64,000 nucleotides of DNA, from IMG/VR virus record IMGVR_UViG_3300002835_000025; one strand, 5' to 3'. The translations under genes were made by a program, and so were the position numbers. The DNA comes from a virus. Below, in pieces: positions 905 through 51,180 of the stretch (the first letter of the stretch is position 1; each line of letters starts with the position of its first letter). The notes below the pieces were generated by a model, which was not told the origin of the DNA, made no database searches, and saw only the letters and a program-made list of their open reading frames with translations.

Positions 905-1315
905 TTAGTCGCCTTTATTCATTTTGTCTATAAGTTTCGAGAGTTCTGCAGTTGAACCAACAAAGATTGAATTGTTAGTCACATTAGTTGCTTTTTGTTC
1001 TGGTTCTTTTGTTACTAACTTTTGTTTCTTTGTATGAACGTCAAGTAACTGATGGTTTATGTCAGCGAGTTGTTTGATAAGATTACCAACAACTTCAAAT
1101 GCTCTTGGGTGCTCGGATTGTTTAGCAATCTCAAGAGCAGCATCAAGGGCATCCTGTCCGCTTTGAAGTAGTCCATATAAATTACCTCGGGTTTGTTCAC
1201 AATCATAATTGACAGCATTGTCCTTTGGAGGAACTACTATTCCTTGTCTAGTAATCAAGTCACCATCCATCGGAGTTAAATCAAAGACATCATTTAATTT
1301 TTTATCAATGTTCAT
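905..1315 (-). CDS. gp16: terminase small subunit (start re-called at ATG 1315)
   Basis: TRGNLYGLLQSGQDAL...AKQSEHPRAFEVVGNLIKQLAD...TNVTNNSIFVGSTAEL is the T4-like gp16 signature. Confidence 0.85.
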   Translation of the reverse strand: MNIDKKLNDVFDLTPMDGDLITRQGIVVPPKDNAVNYDCEQTRGNLYGLLQSGQDALDAALEIAKQSEHPRAFEVVGNLIKQLADINHQLLDVHTKKQKLVTKEPEQKATNVTNNSIFVGSTAELSKLIDKMNKGD

Positions 1316-1322
1316 AATAAGT

Positions 1323-2054
1323 TTATTGAAATTGTGATTGAAATCTAGTTGGATTAACAATATAATCCGATTGTTGGAATCTCAGAGAGTTGTAATACCC
1401 ACCCAAAAGATTTGATGCGGTCTTATCACCTATCTTTTGTTTCAAGAAATTACTAATCTTAGTATTATCCGCTGATTCAATTACATCATTAGTCTCGTAA
1501 TTGAAAACTGTATAATATCTATATTGCATTGAAACTGATAATTTCATTACTCCATCTCCAGTATAAGACAATTGAATATCCGATACTGATTTTGGAAATG
1601 CTTCATGTAATGTTACTTTATATTTTTCATTATGTTCTGAATCATAAACAATAATATCAACCAATGTGGTATAATTCTTATAGTAAGCATGATTTCTTGT
1701 TATTGGATTGATAATAGAATTGATCCAAGAATCAAAGAATTTCTTTATATTCATATCATTATCAACGTAGAATGTTAGATTTACTGGGTCGTATATTCTT
1801 TGTGTTGGCGATTCTCTTGTTTCACCATAAGCTGATACATCTACCGTACCAAGTGAAGTACCTGGCAAATTAGTAGAATCACAGAACATAATATATTTTT
1901 TCATTGCTTGAGATGATGCAAAAGAACCTGGTATAGTAGTTCTGTTATTTGCATCTGTAGGCACAGTAATCGACACGGCAAAATGGGAGCTTTTCATCAA
2001 CCCACCATTCTTTACCTCTGAGATAAAACTTTGAAGAGAACCTGTTTCTGACAT
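1323..2054 (-). CDS. gp54: baseplate tail-tube initiator (gp19-family)
   Basis: gp19-like motifs CDSTNLPG...YDPVNLTFYVDNDMNIKKFFDSW...LHEAFPKSV; baseplate context. Confidence 0.75.
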   Translation of the reverse strand: MSETGSLQSFISEVKNGGLMKSSHFAVSITVPTDANNRTTIPGSFASSQAMKKYIMFCDSTNLPGTSLGTVDVSAYGETRESPTQRIYDPVNLTFYVDNDMNIKKFFDSWINSIINPITRNHAYYKNYTTLVDIIVYDSEHNEKYKVTLHEAFPKSVSDIQLSYTGDGVMKLSVSMQYRYYTVFNYETNDVIESADNTKISNFLKQKIGDKTASNLLGGYYNSLRFQQSDYIVNPTRFQSQFQ

Positions 2055-3346: not shown

Positions 3347-4450
3347 ATGGCACAAAGAACCCAATACACTAAACAGAATTTTAAGAATACCTATTCTACA
3401 GATTCATTTAGTTATCCAGATGATGTGACTACTAGCGAAGTCTATGGTGGTAACTTTGCTGTGTTTTTCATCAATGTACAAGAACAATCTAAATTATTAA
3501 ATGGCGATACCTCATTCGTGAATGATGTGATTACTGGAATTAATAATAACGCTGGAAATATTAGTACTACTGCTGCTATTGCATCTCAAGCAATGGTTGG
3601 AGCATTCCAAGGTGGTCTTGTTGGTGCAATAGGAGGAGTTTATGATGCAGTCAAAAGTGCGGGTGCTGGTAATGCCGCAGATACTGGATTAGCAAATTCA
3701 GGAAAGGGTATTTTAGGTTCTGCTGCTAAAAAACTTGCTGCTCCATTAGGAGGTGCTATATTGAAAGGCGGTGCGGCTGGCGTAATTGCTTACGAATCTG
3801 GTGGATTCTCGCAACCAGTAAAGCGATTGAAAACTGCTATTTCTCTTTATATGCCATCTAGTCTATCTGCTACTTATGGCGTTCAGTACAATGAATCTGA
3901 AGTACCACTTACAATGCAAGTAGCAAATGCTGTTGGTGATATGTTTAATGGCACTTTACCAGTTGGCGATACTAGTAAAGCAATTGCTACTGCCGTAGGA
4001 TTCAAAATGAGTGGTGATGCTGCTGGAGCACTTTCAAAATTATCCAAATTGGCTCCTAATCCAACAACAGAAATGGTATTTCAATCTGTAGAGACTAGAA
4101 CATTCAGTTTTAACTATAGATTTGCTCCACGTTCTGAAAAAGAAGCTGAGAATGTTCTGAGAATTATTGAACAATTCAAATTCCATATGCATCCAGAATT
4201 TAAAGATCAAACTGGATTCCTTTACATATATCCGTCCGAATTTGATATTGTTTACTATTCGGGTGGGCAAGAAAATCCTAATCTACATAAGCATACTTCA
4301 TGTGTACTGATTAATATGGTAGTAAACTATACTCCTAATAGTATATTTTCTACATTCGACAATGGAATGCCTACCCAGATTGAACTAACTCTATCATTCA
4401 AAGAATTGGCAAAACTAGACAAACAGAAAATTCAGGAAGGAAAATTCTAA
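3347..4450 (+). CDS. gp48: baseplate tail-tube cap
   Basis: ISLYMP...NPTTEMVFQSVETRTFSFNYRFAPRSEKEA...YPSEFDI...GMPTQIELTLSFKEL. Confidence 0.88.
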   Translation: MAQRTQYTKQNFKNTYSTDSFSYPDDVTTSEVYGGNFAVFFINVQEQSKLLNGDTSFVNDVITGINNNAGNISTTAAIASQAMVGAFQGGLVGAIGGVYDAVKSAGAGNAADTGLANSGKGILGSAAKKLAAPLGGAILKGGAAGVIAYESGGFSQPVKRLKTAISLYMPSSLSATYGVQYNESEVPLTMQVANAVGDMFNGTLPVGDTSKAIATAVGFKMSGDAAGALSKLSKLAPNPTTEMVFQSVETRTFSFNYRFAPRSEKEAENVLRIIEQFKFHMHPEFKDQTGFLYIYPSEFDIVYYSGGQENPNLHKHTSCVLINMVVNYTPNSIFSTFDNGMPTQIELTLSFKELAKLDKQKIQEGKF

Positions 4451-4953
4451 TGTACTTTCAAGATTTTGATAAAATATACTACAATTTTGATATCAACGGT
4501 AAGACTGAAACTAGAGTAATGACTGACATTACTAAGAATGTCAGAATAAGAAAACAAATCTTATCCAATATTACTCTGTTTGATGAGTATACTATTACAG
4601 ATGGTGAAACTCCAGAATCTATTGCCGAATTGATATATGGTAGAGCAGACTATCATTGGGCAGTAATGTTGTCTAATGATATGTACGACTATCTTAATGA
4701 TTTTCCATTACCGATGAGAACAATGGAAAAGGTGATTGCGGATAAATATGGTGAAGATAACGTAAACAATATTCACCATTATGAAGCAGTAATACATGGA
4801 ACGTCTTATGTTGTTGATGAAGATGCACCAAATTCTGTTCCTATTACAAATTCAGATTATGAATATACTGTCAATGAGAGTAAAAGAAATATAAAATTAA
4901 TCTCTCCGCTATTAATTGAACAAGTTGCTAATGAATTAGGTAATCTAGTCTAA
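4450..4953 (+). CDS. gp53: baseplate wedge subunit (LysM-like)
   Basis: MYFQDF...DGETPESIAELIYGRADYHWAVML...IHHYE...NESKRNIKLI. Confidence 0.88.
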   Translation: MYFQDFDKIYYNFDINGKTETRVMTDITKNVRIRKQILSNITLFDEYTITDGETPESIAELIYGRADYHWAVMLSNDMYDYLNDFPLPMRTMEKVIADKYGEDNVNNIHHYEAVIHGTSYVVDEDAPNSVPITNSDYEYTVNESKRNIKLISPLLIEQVANELGNLV

Positions 4954-46786: not shown

Positions 46787-47749
46787 ATGGCCACACACTC
46801 AAGAGAACAACTTAAACAATACTGTCTTCGTGCATTAGGTGCTCCCGTACTTGAAATCAATGTAGAGGATATGCAATTAGAAGACCGTATAGATGAAGCA
46901 CTGGAATATTGGAGACAGTATCATCCAGATGGGGTTGAAAAACTCTATATGAAACACAAGATTTCAGCATCCATCATAACATTAACTACACAGACTGCTA
47001 CTTCTTTTACTGTAGGTGAAACTGTCACAGGATTAACTTCTGGTGCTACTGCCGAAGTTGCTACAGAAATCTTCGAATCATCTTCTGGTGCTAGTCTAAT
47101 GACCAAAATGGTTAAAGGTACATTTGTACCAGGTGAACACATTGTTGGTTCTAAATCGGGATACGATACGACTATAGTATCTTGTGTTCTTGGTGTATAT
47201 GATAACAAGTACATCGAAATTCCCGATTTGGTTTATGGCATAAGCAACATTCTACCAATCAGCAACAGTACAACATCGACCAATACCGTTTTCAATCTTC
47301 AGTATCAATTAAGATTAAATGACCTACATGACTTGACTTCAACATCAATGATTTACTATACAACTGCTATGAGTTATCTTGACTTGATGTCTTTTGTGTT
47401 GAACAGAGCACCATCAATCAGATTCAATCGTATGCAAGGTAGATTACATTTAGATCTAAATTGGGAAACTGATGTTACTTTAGGAACCTATGTTATTGCA
47501 GAATGCTACCGTGCATTGGATCCAGCAGAATCTACTCAAGTATGGAACGAGAGATGGTTGAAACATTATACTACTGCTTTGTTCAAAAAACAGTGGGGGC
47601 AGAATTTATCTAAATTTTCTAATATGCTTTTACCGGGTGGTGTTTCTATAGATGGTCAAGGCATATACGATACAGCAACACAAGAAATAAAAGATTTAGA
47701 AGATGAATTAGTAACATTGGCAGCACCACTCTCATGGTTTATGGGCTGA
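46787..47749 (+). CDS. gp13: neck protein
   Basis: SREQLKQYCLRALGAPVLEINV...QLEDRIDEAL...WLKHYTTALFKKQWGQNLSKF...LPGGV. Confidence 0.92.
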   Translation: MATHSREQLKQYCLRALGAPVLEINVEDMQLEDRIDEALEYWRQYHPDGVEKLYMKHKISASIITLTTQTATSFTVGETVTGLTSGATAEVATEIFESSSGASLMTKMVKGTFVPGEHIVGSKSGYDTTIVSCVLGVYDNKYIEIPDLVYGISNILPISNSTTSTNTVFNLQYQLRLNDLHDLTSTSMIYYTTAMSYLDLMSFVLNRAPSIRFNRMQGRLHLDLNWETDVTLGTYVIAECYRALDPAESTQVWNERWLKHYTTALFKKQWGQNLSKFSNMLLPGGVSIDGQGIYDTATQEIKDLEDELVTLAAPLSWFMG

Positions 47750-47753
47750 TACT

Positions 47754-48407
47754 ATGCCACGGAATAAATATTTTACAATGGGTACTACTTCCGAACAGAA
47801 TGTTTGGGAGGATATTATCATCGAATCATTAAAGATTTATGGTCAGGATGTTAGATACATTCCAAGAACTTTGATTGCTAAAGATGAAATACTTGGTGAG
47901 GATAGATTATCACAATTCAATAGTCAATATCCAATAGAAGCATACTTTGAGAATATAGATAACTTTGAAGGTCAAGGGTCATTCATTCAAAAGTTTGGTT
48001 TGATGGTTGAACAATCTGCTACATTAGTAATTGCTAGAAAGCGTTGGGAACAACTTATTGGAACTTTTGGAACTACCATTCTTCCAAACAGACCTTGTGA
48101 AGGTGATTTGATTTACTTTCCACTATCAAAGGGATTGTTTGAAATAAAGTTTGTGCAACATCAGGATCCATTCTATCAAATTGGAAAACTTTACGTTTAC
48201 AAACTGCAAATCGAATTGTTCCAATATGCTAGTGAAAAGATCAATACTGGTATTGATGAGGTTGATGTGTTTGAAACTTTGAAATCGTTTGATGTAGACA
48301 TTACTGCCAATACTGATACTCAACAATCTTATGGCGATAATGATAAGTTTATAGATAAAGCAACTGATGTTATCTTCTCAGAAACAAATCCATTCGGTGA
48401 ACTATAA
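47754..48407 (+). CDS. gp14: neck protein / head closure
   Basis: EQNVWEDIIIESLKIYGQDVRYIPR...KFGL...RPCEGDLIYFP...LFEIKFV...PFYQIGK. Confidence 0.92.
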   Translation: MPRNKYFTMGTTSEQNVWEDIIIESLKIYGQDVRYIPRTLIAKDEILGEDRLSQFNSQYPIEAYFENIDNFEGQGSFIQKFGLMVEQSATLVIARKRWEQLIGTFGTTILPNRPCEGDLIYFPLSKGLFEIKFVQHQDPFYQIGKLYVYKLQIELFQYASEKINTGIDEVDVFETLKSFDVDITANTDTQQSYGDNDKFIDKATDVIFSETNPFGEL

Positions 48408-49138
48408 TGCTAAATAATCCTCCATATTACCATGGTATTATAAAGAAAGCAATTGTAGCATTCGGACGGATGTTTTCAGAAATTCAAATTGAGCGAATGG
48501 ACGAAAATGGTGACGTATTACAAACCATAAACGTACCTATTGCTTATGGTCCTAAAGAAAAATGGCTAGTTCGACTGGAACAAGATCCATCATTGGATAA
48601 CAATGTTAATACTATACTTCCTAGAATGTCGTTTGAAATAGTTGGATATTCTTATGATGCAACTAGAAAGTCCAACAAAATGACAAAGGTTGCTAGTTAT
48701 AACCAAACTACATCTGTATTAAAGACTCAATTCAGTCCTGTACCATATAATCTAGATATAGAATTAAACTTGTTAACCAAAACAACAGAAGATGCATTAG
48801 CAGTAGTTGAACAAATCTTGCCAGTATTCACTCCAGACTATACATTATCAATTAATGCTATTCCAGACTTGAATATTGTTAATGATGTTCCTATTATATT
48901 GAATGGAGTTAGTTTCCAGGATTCTTATGATGGCGATTTTCAATCAAGACGGGAAATAGTTTATACCTTTAGCTTTACCATGAAAGTTAATATATTTGGA
49001 TCAATAACATCATCAGGCGTTATCAAGAAAGCCAATGTCACTTTACCAAATCAACCATTGGATTACTTTGTTAAGTCTAATGTACCAGATACTTTTATAA
49101 TAGATACTTGGTCAAATAATACACCAACTGGATTCTAA
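48407..49138 (+). CDS. gp15: tail sheath stabiliser / tail terminator
   Basis: IVAFGRMF...VPIAYGPKEKWL...LPRMSFE...PVPYNL...VEQILPVFTP. Confidence 0.92.
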   Translation: MLNNPPYYHGIIKKAIVAFGRMFSEIQIERMDENGDVLQTINVPIAYGPKEKWLVRLEQDPSLDNNVNTILPRMSFEIVGYSYDATRKSNKMTKVASYNQTTSVLKTQFSPVPYNLDIELNLLTKTTEDALAVVEQILPVFTPDYTLSINAIPDLNIVNDVPIILNGVSFQDSYDGDFQSRREIVYTFSFTMKVNIFGSITSSGVIKKANVTLPNQPLDYFVKSNVPDTFIIDTWSNNTPTGF

Positions 49139-49148
49139 TGTTGATACA

Positions 49149-49555
49149 CGAGCTTGCTCGCAACCATGAACGCAGTGAATGGTTGAACAGATTAATACTA
49201 ATATTGACCTTTTAATTCGCTCACTGCGTTCACGAATGGTGGATTGCTCACTGCGTTCGCAACCACTTGACTACTAGATTATTTGGTATTTTTCCAGCCC
49301 TACATTGATGGTTTATATAAACTGCGCCGTGTAGGTCCGATGCAAAAACTGGAATTCTGATAAAGAAACATCCGACCTGCGAATAATATTGAACTTTATC
49401 GTCCATGTCTGTATTGCTAGTTTTGCTATAACGACAGACTTATTTGTAGATTGGCTACTACAGGGTACAGGAAAATTCCCGATCCTCATCTGGCAGGGGT
49501 AGGTTCCTGCTCATGCAACTGGTGTCCCATTGTCCAGTAATTATATAGGCTATGT
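49149..49555 (-). ncRNA. candidate structured non-coding element (ncRNA and/or origin or pac element)
   Basis: No ORF of 60 aa or more; GC-richer than flanks; many inverted repeats; a dedicated minus-strand promoter at 49560-49589. Confidence 0.5.
49161..49266. repeat. three hairpins sharing the 11-nt core GAACGCAGTGA
   Basis: Cores at 49168-49178 (+), 49221-49231 (-) and 49248-49258 (-), each closed by a different stem. Confidence 0.85.
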
Positions 49556-49559
49556 GATA

Positions 49560-49589
49560 ATTATATCTTATTTATACGAAAAAGTAAAC
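49560..49589 (-). promoter_or_regulatory. nested promoter: GTTTACT-N17-TATAAT (early/sigma70-type) with late TATAAATA inside the spacer
   Basis: Minus strand reads GTTTACT TTTTCGTATAAATAAGA TATAAT: -35 at 49583-49588, -10 at 49560-49565, late box at 49569-49576. Confidence 0.75.
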
Positions 49590-49596
49590 ACTAATT

Positions 49597-51180
49597 ATGG
49601 CTTCTTTGACATACAATTCAAATCCAAACCTAAAATCTATTGGGGTTTCTGTCGATTATACGGAATACCAAGTCCAAGAATACATTAAGTGTAAAGCAGA
49701 TCCAATATATTTCATTAAGAATTATATAAAGATTATTACTCTAGACTATGGATTGGTACCATTTGAACTATTCGATTACCAAATAGATTTTATCAACACC
49801 ATACACAATAATAGTCGTTCCATCGGCATGTTTCCGAGACAACACGGAAAGACAACAACTGTAGCTGCTTACCTAGTTTGGTACTGCGTATTCAATGAAA
49901 GTAAAAATGTAGCTATGTTGGGTAACAAAGTTGCTGCTGCTCGTGAAGTTATGGCACGGTTTCAACTTATGTATGAAGAACTTCCAATATGGCTTCAACA
50001 GGGTGTTGTCGAATGGAACAAAGGTTCAGTAGCTCTAGAGAACAAAAGCAAAGCATTTATTGCTGCCACAACTGCATCAGGTATTCGAGGCAAATCTGTC
50101 AATCTTTTATATCTTGATGAACTTTCATCTGTTCCTGGTACAGTAGCTGAAGAATTCTTTGCTTCAACTTATCCTACAATCTCATCTGGTGAATCTTCAA
50201 AGGTTATTATAACATCTACTCCTATAGGTTTCAACCATTTTTGGAAAATGTGGGATGAAGCAGAACGAAATATAAATGGATTTATTCACAAACGAGTTGA
50301 ATATTGGGAACATCCTTTACATAATGAAGAATGGGCAGCCAAACAGAAACAACTTTTAGGTGAAATTAAGTACAACCAAGAAGTTTTGATGCACTTTCTG
50401 GGTTCATCTTATACACTTATTGGTAGTGATGTAATGTCCAAAATGAGACCTATTTCTTATATACACTCCAATAATGGATTAGACATTATTGAATATCCAA
50501 TACAATTCCATAGTTATGTTATGGTTGTGGATACATCAAAAGGTGTTGGTGGTGACTATTCAGCATTTACAGTTATAGATGTTACCCAACTTCCATATAA
50601 AGTTGTGGCAAAATATAGAGATAATAACATAAGTCCACTTCTATATCCAAATGTCATCTATAAAATTGCTAATGACTATAATGAAGCATTTGTACTTATG
50701 GAGATAAATAGTTCTGAACAAGTTAGTTATATTCTCCATGCAGATCTTGAATATGAAAATATACTATCAGTTGGAAGAAATTCCAAAGGTCAATGTATTT
50801 CCGGTGGCTTTGGTGGACAATCAAGATTAGGTGTCAATACTGATAAGAAAATAAAGAGAATAGGTTGTAATAATCTTAAAACACTAATAGAAGAAAATAA
50901 ACTATTAGTATATGATGCTGATATCATTGCAGAATTCTCGACGTTTATCGAATCGAAAGGTTCTTATGCAGCCGACGATGGATATCACGATGATCTTGTC
51001 ATGACATTGGTTCTTTTTGCCTGGTTAACTACAGATCCATATTTTACCGCACTTAATAACATTGATATGAGAAAGTCAATCTATGAAGATAGAATGAAAC
51101 TTATAGACGAACAGATGGTACCTACTGGTTGGTTGAATGATGGTAATGAATCAGATAAAGAAATCTTGATGAATTTCTGA
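49597..51180 (+). CDS. gp17: terminase large subunit
   Basis: PRQHGKTT (Walker A), IRGKSVNLLYLDE (Walker B), ITSTP, DTSKGVGGDYS, HDDLVM. Confidence 0.96.
   Translation: MASLTYNSNPNLKSIGVSVDYTEYQVQEYIKCKADPIYFIKNYIKIITLDYGLVPFELFDYQIDFINTIHNNSRSIGMFPRQHGKTTTVAAYLVWYCVFNESKNVAMLGNKVAAAREVMARFQLMYEELPIWLQQGVVEWNKGSVALENKSKAFIAATTASGIRGKSVNLLYLDELSSVPGTVAEEFFASTYPTISSGESSKVIITSTPIGFNHFWKMWDEAERNINGFIHKRVEYWEHPLHNEEWAAKQKQLLGEIKYNQEVLMHFLGSSYTLIGSDVMSKMRPISYIHSNNGLDIIEYPIQFHSYVMVVDTSKGVGGDYSAFTVIDVTQLPYKVVAKYRDNNISPLLYPNVIYKIANDYNEAFVLMEINSSEQVSYILHADLEYENILSVGRNSKGQCISGGFGGQSRLGVNTDKKIKRIGCNNLKTLIEENKLLVYDADIIAEFSTFIESKGSYAADDGYHDDLVMTLVLFAWLTTDPYFTALNNIDMRKSIYEDRMKLIDEQMVPTGWLNDGNESDKEILMNF

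Follow-up and report, generated by a model that had tools for sequence, protein, structure and literature searches.

A new family of structured RNA beside the large terminase gene of freshwater T4-like phages, probably transcribed as an antisense non-coding RNA

Between the genes for the tail-sheath stabiliser gp15 and the large terminase gp17 (TerL), an uncultured T4-like myophage carries a 458-nt gap (positions 49139-49596) that contains a conserved multi-hairpin element. The pattern of base changes among related sequences indicates that this element is a real structured RNA and not a coding remnant. It represents a well-supported and apparently new family of structured RNAs among T4-like phages from freshwater; judged by description, it differs from the candidate structured RNAs (csRNAs) of an earlier survey (PMC10690425). 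We propose, with a probability of about 0.5, that the gap is a small, dispensable non-coding RNA (ncRNA) gene cassette with promoters on the minus strand, the product of which would depend on its fold and would be antisense to the leader of the terminase mRNA. An undescribed phage ncRNA was one of three roles that the original prediction had suggested for the gap, and it is the one that survived; the element is structured, non-coding and without an Rfam family.

The window, i.e., the whole stretch of 64 kb that was analyzed, covers the virion-gene region of the phage. Nearly all its genes lie on the plus strand, and the order around the gap is gp13, gp14, gp15, gap, gp17/TerL, gp18, gp19 and gp20 (Table 1). 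The gap has a G+C content of 0.39-0.45, compared with about 0.32 around it. On the plus strand, stops are found throughout all three frames, and the minus strand has short ORFs only, none of them common to the relatives. No frame was open across the element on either strand in any of eight relatives and the longest frames differed between them; a conserved small ORF was hence ruled out, in agreement with the original prediction of a stretch without a credible ORF. TerL of the window is intact. In many relatives, insertions that resemble inteins and homing endonucleases break up this gene (Table 1); in L001 and L164 the break lies directly after the Walker-A GK, and the insert starts with C-F/L-x-x-D-T.

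Table 1. Features of the window and, in the last six rows, insertions in TerL of related contigs (contig coordinates).
Feature	Position	Strand	Support or remark
gp16 small terminase, relocated to a place beside gp3-like/gp2/gp4 block	905-1360	-	PF11053 31.4 bits (cut-off 25), phrog_445 2.9e-37
gp13	46787-47749		
gp14	47754-48407		
gp15 tail-sheath stabiliser, left neighbour	48407-49138	+	PF16724 3.9e-70, phrog_227
G+C-rich hairpin spacer, lineage-specific, outside conserved core	49139-49296		
Conserved ~260-nt structured RNA core, eight hairpins, invariant loops and junctions	49297-49557	- (likely)	R1/R2 covariance models
H1 (CCTAC/GTAGG), enclosing small A/U hairpin	49299-49335	-	2 pairs compensatory
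H2	49331-49381	-	90% of cells paired, little covariation
H3	49390-49405	-	all 5 pairs compensatory
H4 with inner helix H4b (49420-22/49430-32), conserved internal loop	49407-49439	-	5/6 pairs compensatory
H5	49445-49462	-	2 pairs compensatory
H6, conserved outer stem, variable-length inner hairpin	49462-49486	-	
H7, conserved 8-nt loop	49492-49511	-	4/5 pairs compensatory
H8, ACTGG/CCAGT (plus strand), conserved loop GTCCCA (plus strand)	49518-49538	-	4/5 pairs compensatory
sigma70/T4-early-type promoter-like site: GTTTAC(T) 49589-49584, N17, TATAAT 49565-49560	49560-49589	-	
TATAAATA late-promoter motif, nested in spacer of promoter-like site	49569-49576	-	conserved in all relatives
gp17 large terminase (TerL), right neighbour, uninterrupted	49597-51180	+	PF03237, PF17289
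TerL insertion, L001	4101-5418		
TerL insertion, L003	4185-5565		
TerL insertion, L164	4905-5400		
TerL insertion, L170	4284-6005		
TerL insertion, L171	2492-3806		
TerL insertion, L177	2396-4114		

Relatives were gathered by gp15 searches in IMG/VR and JGI metagenomes, which brought up three close contigs along with numerous distant T4-like loci; a protein search and contig look-ups added further close variants and a tier at 62-69% identity. The related contigs stem from freshwater lake metagenomes. There was no close cultured phage, only about 65% DNA identity to cyanophages in part of TerL. Searches with nhmmer and a covariance model revealed the element in ten different sequences (window, L003, L001, L002, L192, L185, L191, L170, L164, L178) from three phage lineages, in which the adjoining gp15 falls to 64% identity. 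It is single-copy in the window according to both covariance models, R1 and R2. Model R1 did not detect it in about 90 other T4-like loci, cultured phages gave no match, and motif scans of IMG/VR yielded no lineages beyond those already carrying it. A scan of prokaryote genomes pointed to three places, the first of which was a chance match in high-G+C DNA, and all three were negative for the element with nhmmer. Rfam 15, a check that the original prediction had proposed, gave no match at the gathering threshold in the whole window, and matches in the gap and in L164, L170, L001 and L002 were at chance level (E 0.44-7, far below gathering). Neither a tRNA nor a tmRNA was found.

The distribution of the element is patchy. 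In a gp15 tree, all carriers fall into one clade (support 97/92), together with three contigs that lack the element (L171, L175, L177). Two of these three hold a different small gene at its position, i.e., in L175 (1759-2103) and L177 (1792-2112) a gene of 106-114 aa with a weak Mtd_N match replaces the RNA at the junction of gp15 and terminase. In contigs of the nearest outgroup, the distance between gp15 and TerL is 9-21 nt, or the two genes overlap. From these sequences, the element was probably gained once and then lost or replaced several times. Because three relatives within its own clade do without it, we conclude that it is a dispensable insert, not essential for replication or packaging. 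The window and L003 share a tract of about 650 bp at ~100% identity (49027-49680) that takes in the end of gp15, covers the gap completely and extends 80 nt into the terminase gene, and as its flanks are only 75-93% identical, this points to a recent cassette exchange by recombination. Between the distant lineages, the element is 68% identical, compared with 64-65% for gp15 DNA and 59-63% for TerL DNA.

The gp15-terminase junction is thus an insertion hot spot, and a selfish or decaying insert would explain both the patchy distribution and the recent exchange tract. The RNA would then be part of a mobile element, e.g., ribozyme-bearing or endonuclease-associated, that persists by recombination without benefit to the phage; the adjacent terminase genes of the relatives are, moreover, hot spots for intein and homing-endonuclease insertions. 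However, models of group I and group II introns and of small ribozymes gave no match even at E values up to 10, there is one copy per window or locus, and purifying selection acts on the structure across lineages with 64% gp15 identity. We hence consider a selfish insert very unlikely.

Evidence for the structure came from compensatory base changes. In a MAFFT-based consensus folding of the ten sequences in the minus sense, the variable hairpins were misaligned and spurious long-range pairs arose; model-based alignments were used. In the minus-sense alignment, 26 of 51 pairs were changed on both sides and 96.7% of the cells were paired. When the partners were slid by 1-3 columns, only 1-3 such pairs and 31-46% pairing were left, and none of 500 shuffles reached the observed structure score. 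The covariation across relatives that the original prediction had asked for is thus present. A plus-sense model gave 25 compensatory pairs of 62, with 93.5% of the cells paired.

Individual helices change their sequence and keep their pairing. The H8 stem (ACTGG/CCAGT) becomes GTCAG/CTGAC or GTTGG/CCAAC, the H7 stem goes from GCAGG/CCTGC to CATCG/CGATG and ATAGG/CCTAT, and another helix changes from GTCTGT/ACAGAC to ATATCT/AGATAT. Even the window and L003, which are 99% identical here and differ at four positions of the core, show a T-A to C-G double change in H4, i.e., two of the four differences are one pair swap. The peripheral hairpins differ in length, as for the inner hairpin of H6 with 3 bp in the window and 9 bp in L164, and long stretches of the loops and junctions show no variation. 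By analogy, such variable-length peripheral hairpins look like those of genuine structured RNAs.

All six stems listed in the original prediction exist at their coordinates. Compensatory changes support five of them (49518-22/49534-38, 49493-97/49506-10, 49445-49/49458-62, 49407-12/49434-39 and 49299-304/49330-35), whereas the sixth, 49331-42/49369-80, shows little covariation. The last two, which belong to H1 and H2, share bases and hence compete, so that they are mutually exclusive as proposed. Three further helices had been overlooked, namely 49390-94/49401-05, 49462-86 and 49420-22/49430-32. The extent of the element also had to be narrowed: the core 49297-49557 is conserved, and the first ~150 nt of the gap (49139-49296) are a lineage-specific spacer. 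This spacer contains three copies of GAACGCAGTGA or its complement and can fold as a single long hairpin or as three small ones; the loops of the three small hairpins, here and in the L183 and L185 spacers, are mutually complementary. Variants of the spacer in L183, L185 and the window differ by an apparent inversion of the hairpin loop, GAGC-TTG-CTC versus GAGC-AAG-CTC. Unrelated hairpin spacers of 76-700 nt are found at the same place in L001/L002/L192, L170 and L164; in L164, about 700 nt (3685-4391) more of ORF-free DNA without an Rfam match lie between gp15 and the element.

Judged from its base pairs, its folding energy and the promoter motifs at its edge, the element is quite likely functional as the minus-strand RNA. 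Within the covarying helices, 32 cells form a G.U pair in the minus sense only, compared with nine in the plus sense only. The minus-only cells include the middle pair of H3, which would be A.C in the plus sense, and two pairs of H1, where the compensatory pairs are G.U in L170 and L164 and the plus sense again gives A.C. RNAalifold on the structure-based alignment yielded -50.9 kcal/mol for the minus and -43.7 kcal/mol for the plus sense, i.e., the minus sense was better by about 7 kcal/mol. Some pairs favour the plus sense, i.e., one invariant G.U in H6 and two positions in H7.

A plus-sense RNA would be a cis-acting leader, i.e., a structured 5' UTR of the terminase mRNA that sets translation or mRNA stability. 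In this case, a 13-bp helix (49308-20/49541-53) would close the whole domain in the manner of a riboswitch P1 helix or a protein-binding operator. This helix needs four to five G.U pairs, which are mismatches in the minus sense; it is paired in 97% of the cells, with its G.U pairs kept and one U-A to U.G change that is compatible with the plus sense only, but none of its pairs is changed on both sides in the model alignment. The element always lies upstream of the terminase gene, at 39-43 nt in the close clade, 105 nt in L170 and 215 nt in L164, and its distance from gp15 varies from 76 to ~700 nt. This place upstream of the terminase gene agrees with a leader, as does the need for the plus strand to be transcribed through the element, since the late-promoter motif NATAAATA is missing from the plus strand at 47763-50703. 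In a survey of IMG/VR, 14 csRNAs were found consistently upstream of the putative large-terminase family psiM2_ORF9 (PMC10690425), which likewise speaks for a leader. On the other hand, the plus sense has conserved A.C mismatches in H3 and H6, with others in H1, H4, H4b and H8, its consensus folding energy is worse, a conserved antisense TATAAATA with its -10 would be left unexplained, and sister phages express their terminase without any leader. We regard a plus-sense leader as a real but minor possibility.

The minus strand carries promoter motifs at the TerL-side edge of the core. The original prediction had placed there the site TTTACT-N17-TATAAT (49588-49560) with a nested TATAAATA (49576-49569), and both are present as described, with a predicted start near 49553 at the edge of the core. 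Promoter matches in a single sequence of such AT-rich DNA are at chance level (20 found, 17 expected); they gain weight only through their conservation in relatives. All five lineages contain a minus-sense block (T/G)ATAAATA-N3-TATA(A/C)(T/A) at this edge, mostly at a distance of 7 nt from the core. Although extra DNA parts the block from TerL in L170 and L164, the block stays beside the core there (within 7 and ~31 nt, respectively), i.e., it accompanies the element even at a distance of 60-170 nt from the terminase gene. The late motif of L170 reads GATAAATA. The -10 is kept in the minus sense in five lineages, and L185 and L164 have a poor -35. A promoter scan found homologous sites in L001 (TTGTTA-17-TATACT) and L170 (TTGACT-16-TATAAT) and none at the homologous position in L185. 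L170 and L164 have a second minus-sense (G/T)ATAAATA nearer to the terminase start (~4255-4262 and ~4860-4867, respectively). No intrinsic terminator was predicted on either strand of the element.

Late motifs are unevenly distributed between the strands. NATAAATA occurs 22 times on the plus and five times on the minus strand of the window, with about 24 copies expected per strand, and the plus-strand copies often precede a start codon by 25-36 nt. The 60-kb plus-strand gene block contains three antisense copies, and none of these but that at 49569-76 is intergenic or a full TATAAATA. This approximately fivefold depletion suggests selection against antisense late transcription. As the motif does not occur on the plus strand at 47763-50703, a plus-sense copy of the element must be part of the late TerL mRNA as its leader, and a minus-strand RNA would unavoidably be antisense to it. 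From the conserved motifs and the strand-specific pairs, we conclude that the element is probably an independently transcribed, antisense-oriented ncRNA.

This complementarity could itself be the function, if minus RNA and terminase leader were a pure sense/antisense pair that forms a duplex for RNase III cleavage or interference, with the mirrored hairpins as kissing loops, cf. plasmid copy-control RNAs. Such a pair would account for G.U-only pairs on both strands and for an antisense promoter that leads into a region crossed by late mRNA. Complementarity in cis is, however, automatic, and loops and junctions should therefore drift, yet they are invariant over long stretches; furthermore, with a predicted start 35-45 nt ahead of the terminase start codon, the RNA would leave the ribosome-binding region uncovered. 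We find a pure sense/antisense pair improbable.

In T4-like phages, gp16 normally precedes gp17, and the gap had been taken for the gp16 slot. This placement did not hold, as the small terminase is encoded elsewhere in the window, 48 kb from the large terminase (Table 1), and gp15 abuts gp17 in the outgroup. The 905-1360 gene is matched by 48 ORFs that occupy the gp15-gp17 slot in other T4-like contigs, with a best E value of 2.8e-28. In a phmmer search of 110 distinct slot ORFs against six-frame ORFs of the window, the only match was 908-1381 on the minus strand, and the gap had none. A broken or recoded gp16 in the gap was rejected from its plus-frame stops and the missing phmmer match, and a pRNA-like RNA in place of the small terminase was rejected from the presence of the gene. 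Searches for gp16 in the contig fragments of relatives were empty, which says little, as the records are 9-65% complete and the controls were silent, too. The position of gp16 at 48 kb from gp17 is unusual for T4-like phages. An empty gp16 slot hence does not imply a missing small terminase, which corrects an easy misreading.

The original prediction had also considered a replication primer forming an R-loop and a packaging-initiation (pac) element. Both would make the region a DNA-level signal, as would hairpins in single-stranded DNA, and a promoter directed into the region and the potential of single strands to form the hairpins are in line with this. T4-type R-loop origins consist of a middle-mode MotA-box promoter followed by an AT-rich DNA-unwinding element. 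Here, inspection by eye showed no TGCTT-type MotA box within the 30 nt that precede the -10, and the DNA downstream of the minus promoter is structured and has a G+C content of 0.40-0.45, compared with ~0.32 around, so that it is not easily unwound. The cumulative GC skew, proposed as a check for an origin, has no inflection at 49 kb, which is a weak test since replication of T4-like genomes relies largely on recombination. The element is absent from the three clade relatives and from all outgroup T4-like loci, which does not agree with a primer or with a pac site; nothing supports the latter, and 48 kb separate the region from the small terminase gene. Finally, pairs of the G.U type are kept, as expected for RNA. 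We consider a DNA-level signal highly improbable, and neither of the two suggested roles was sustained.

In the ncRNA gene cassette that we favour, two nested minus-strand promoters, one of sigma70/T4-early type and one late (TATAAATA), would lie beside the start codon of TerL and direct transcription away from this gene. The first ~260 nt of the minus RNA would fold into the eight hairpins, H8 to H1, and the variable G+C-rich hairpin cluster beside gp15 may form the 3' end of the RNA or a stabiliser. As the unpaired parts are conserved as strongly as the neighbouring proteins, we suggest that the RNA acts through a defined fold, presumably by binding a partner (protein or ligand) and not by base-pairing alone. 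Loop-loop or pseudoknot contacts among the invariant loops, considered by eye, would join segments that show no variation at all. Being antisense to the TerL leader, it may also tune terminase dosage. A search for targets of two invariant single-stranded motifs elsewhere in the window gave nothing informative.

Large structured RNAs with comparable covariation support are rare, and several proved to be ribozymes, riboswitches or RNP cores. A wider reading would make the element a new class of large, tertiary-folded RNA, e.g., a ribozyme or RNP core, made early and late from an antisense promoter within the virion-gene operon and acting in trans on the host or on the packaging enzyme, e.g., as host-defence decoy or terminase dosage controller; this appears doubtful to us. 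The phages concerned are a widespread, uncultured freshwater group of T4-like phages, and the RNA would apparently be directed against a late operon by promoters of two temporal classes, beside the gene for the packaging motor. Should the minus RNA be real, this would be the unusual case of a T4-type phage that keeps one antisense late promoter and purges nearly all others, and would offer a defined handle on the roles of accessory RNAs in lytic phages.

Several known systems resemble the element in part. Phage phi29 is not known to encode a small terminase and depends on its packaging RNA (pRNA) as an obligatory part of the motor. Like the element, pRNA is a phage-encoded structured RNA with its own promoter and linked in idea to DNA packaging, but the phage described here has a small terminase, its close relatives lack the RNA, and there is no sequence or model match. 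At the R-loop origins oriF and oriG of T4 and with the RNA II primer of ColE1, a promoter likewise drives an RNA into a non-coding region, and RNA II has multiple hairpins; the element, in contrast, is dispensable and lacks a MotA-type box, an AT-rich unwinding element and a skew signal. Cis-encoded antisense RNAs of phages and plasmids, such as CopA, RNA I and those of cyanophages, share with it the stem-loops and the transcription opposite to an mRNA crossing the same DNA. The element is far larger, however, with ~260 nt and eight hairpins, and has invariant unpaired segments that antisense pairing does not need. Promoter-early stem-loops (PeSLs) are short and present in many near-identical copies per genome. 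As cassettes of T4-type phages they combine, like the element, an early-type promoter with hairpins in intergenic positions and are exchanged by recombination, whereas the element is 260 nt long, complex and, with both covariance models, single-copy within 64 kb. The closest description is that of the csRNAs, which are also computational and covariation-supported, stem from uncultured phage contigs and lie just upstream of a large terminase (PMC10690425). Compared by description, they accompany the psiM2_ORF9 terminase family and were read as plus-sense cis-regulators, whereas the element is probably antisense and would have promoters of its own.
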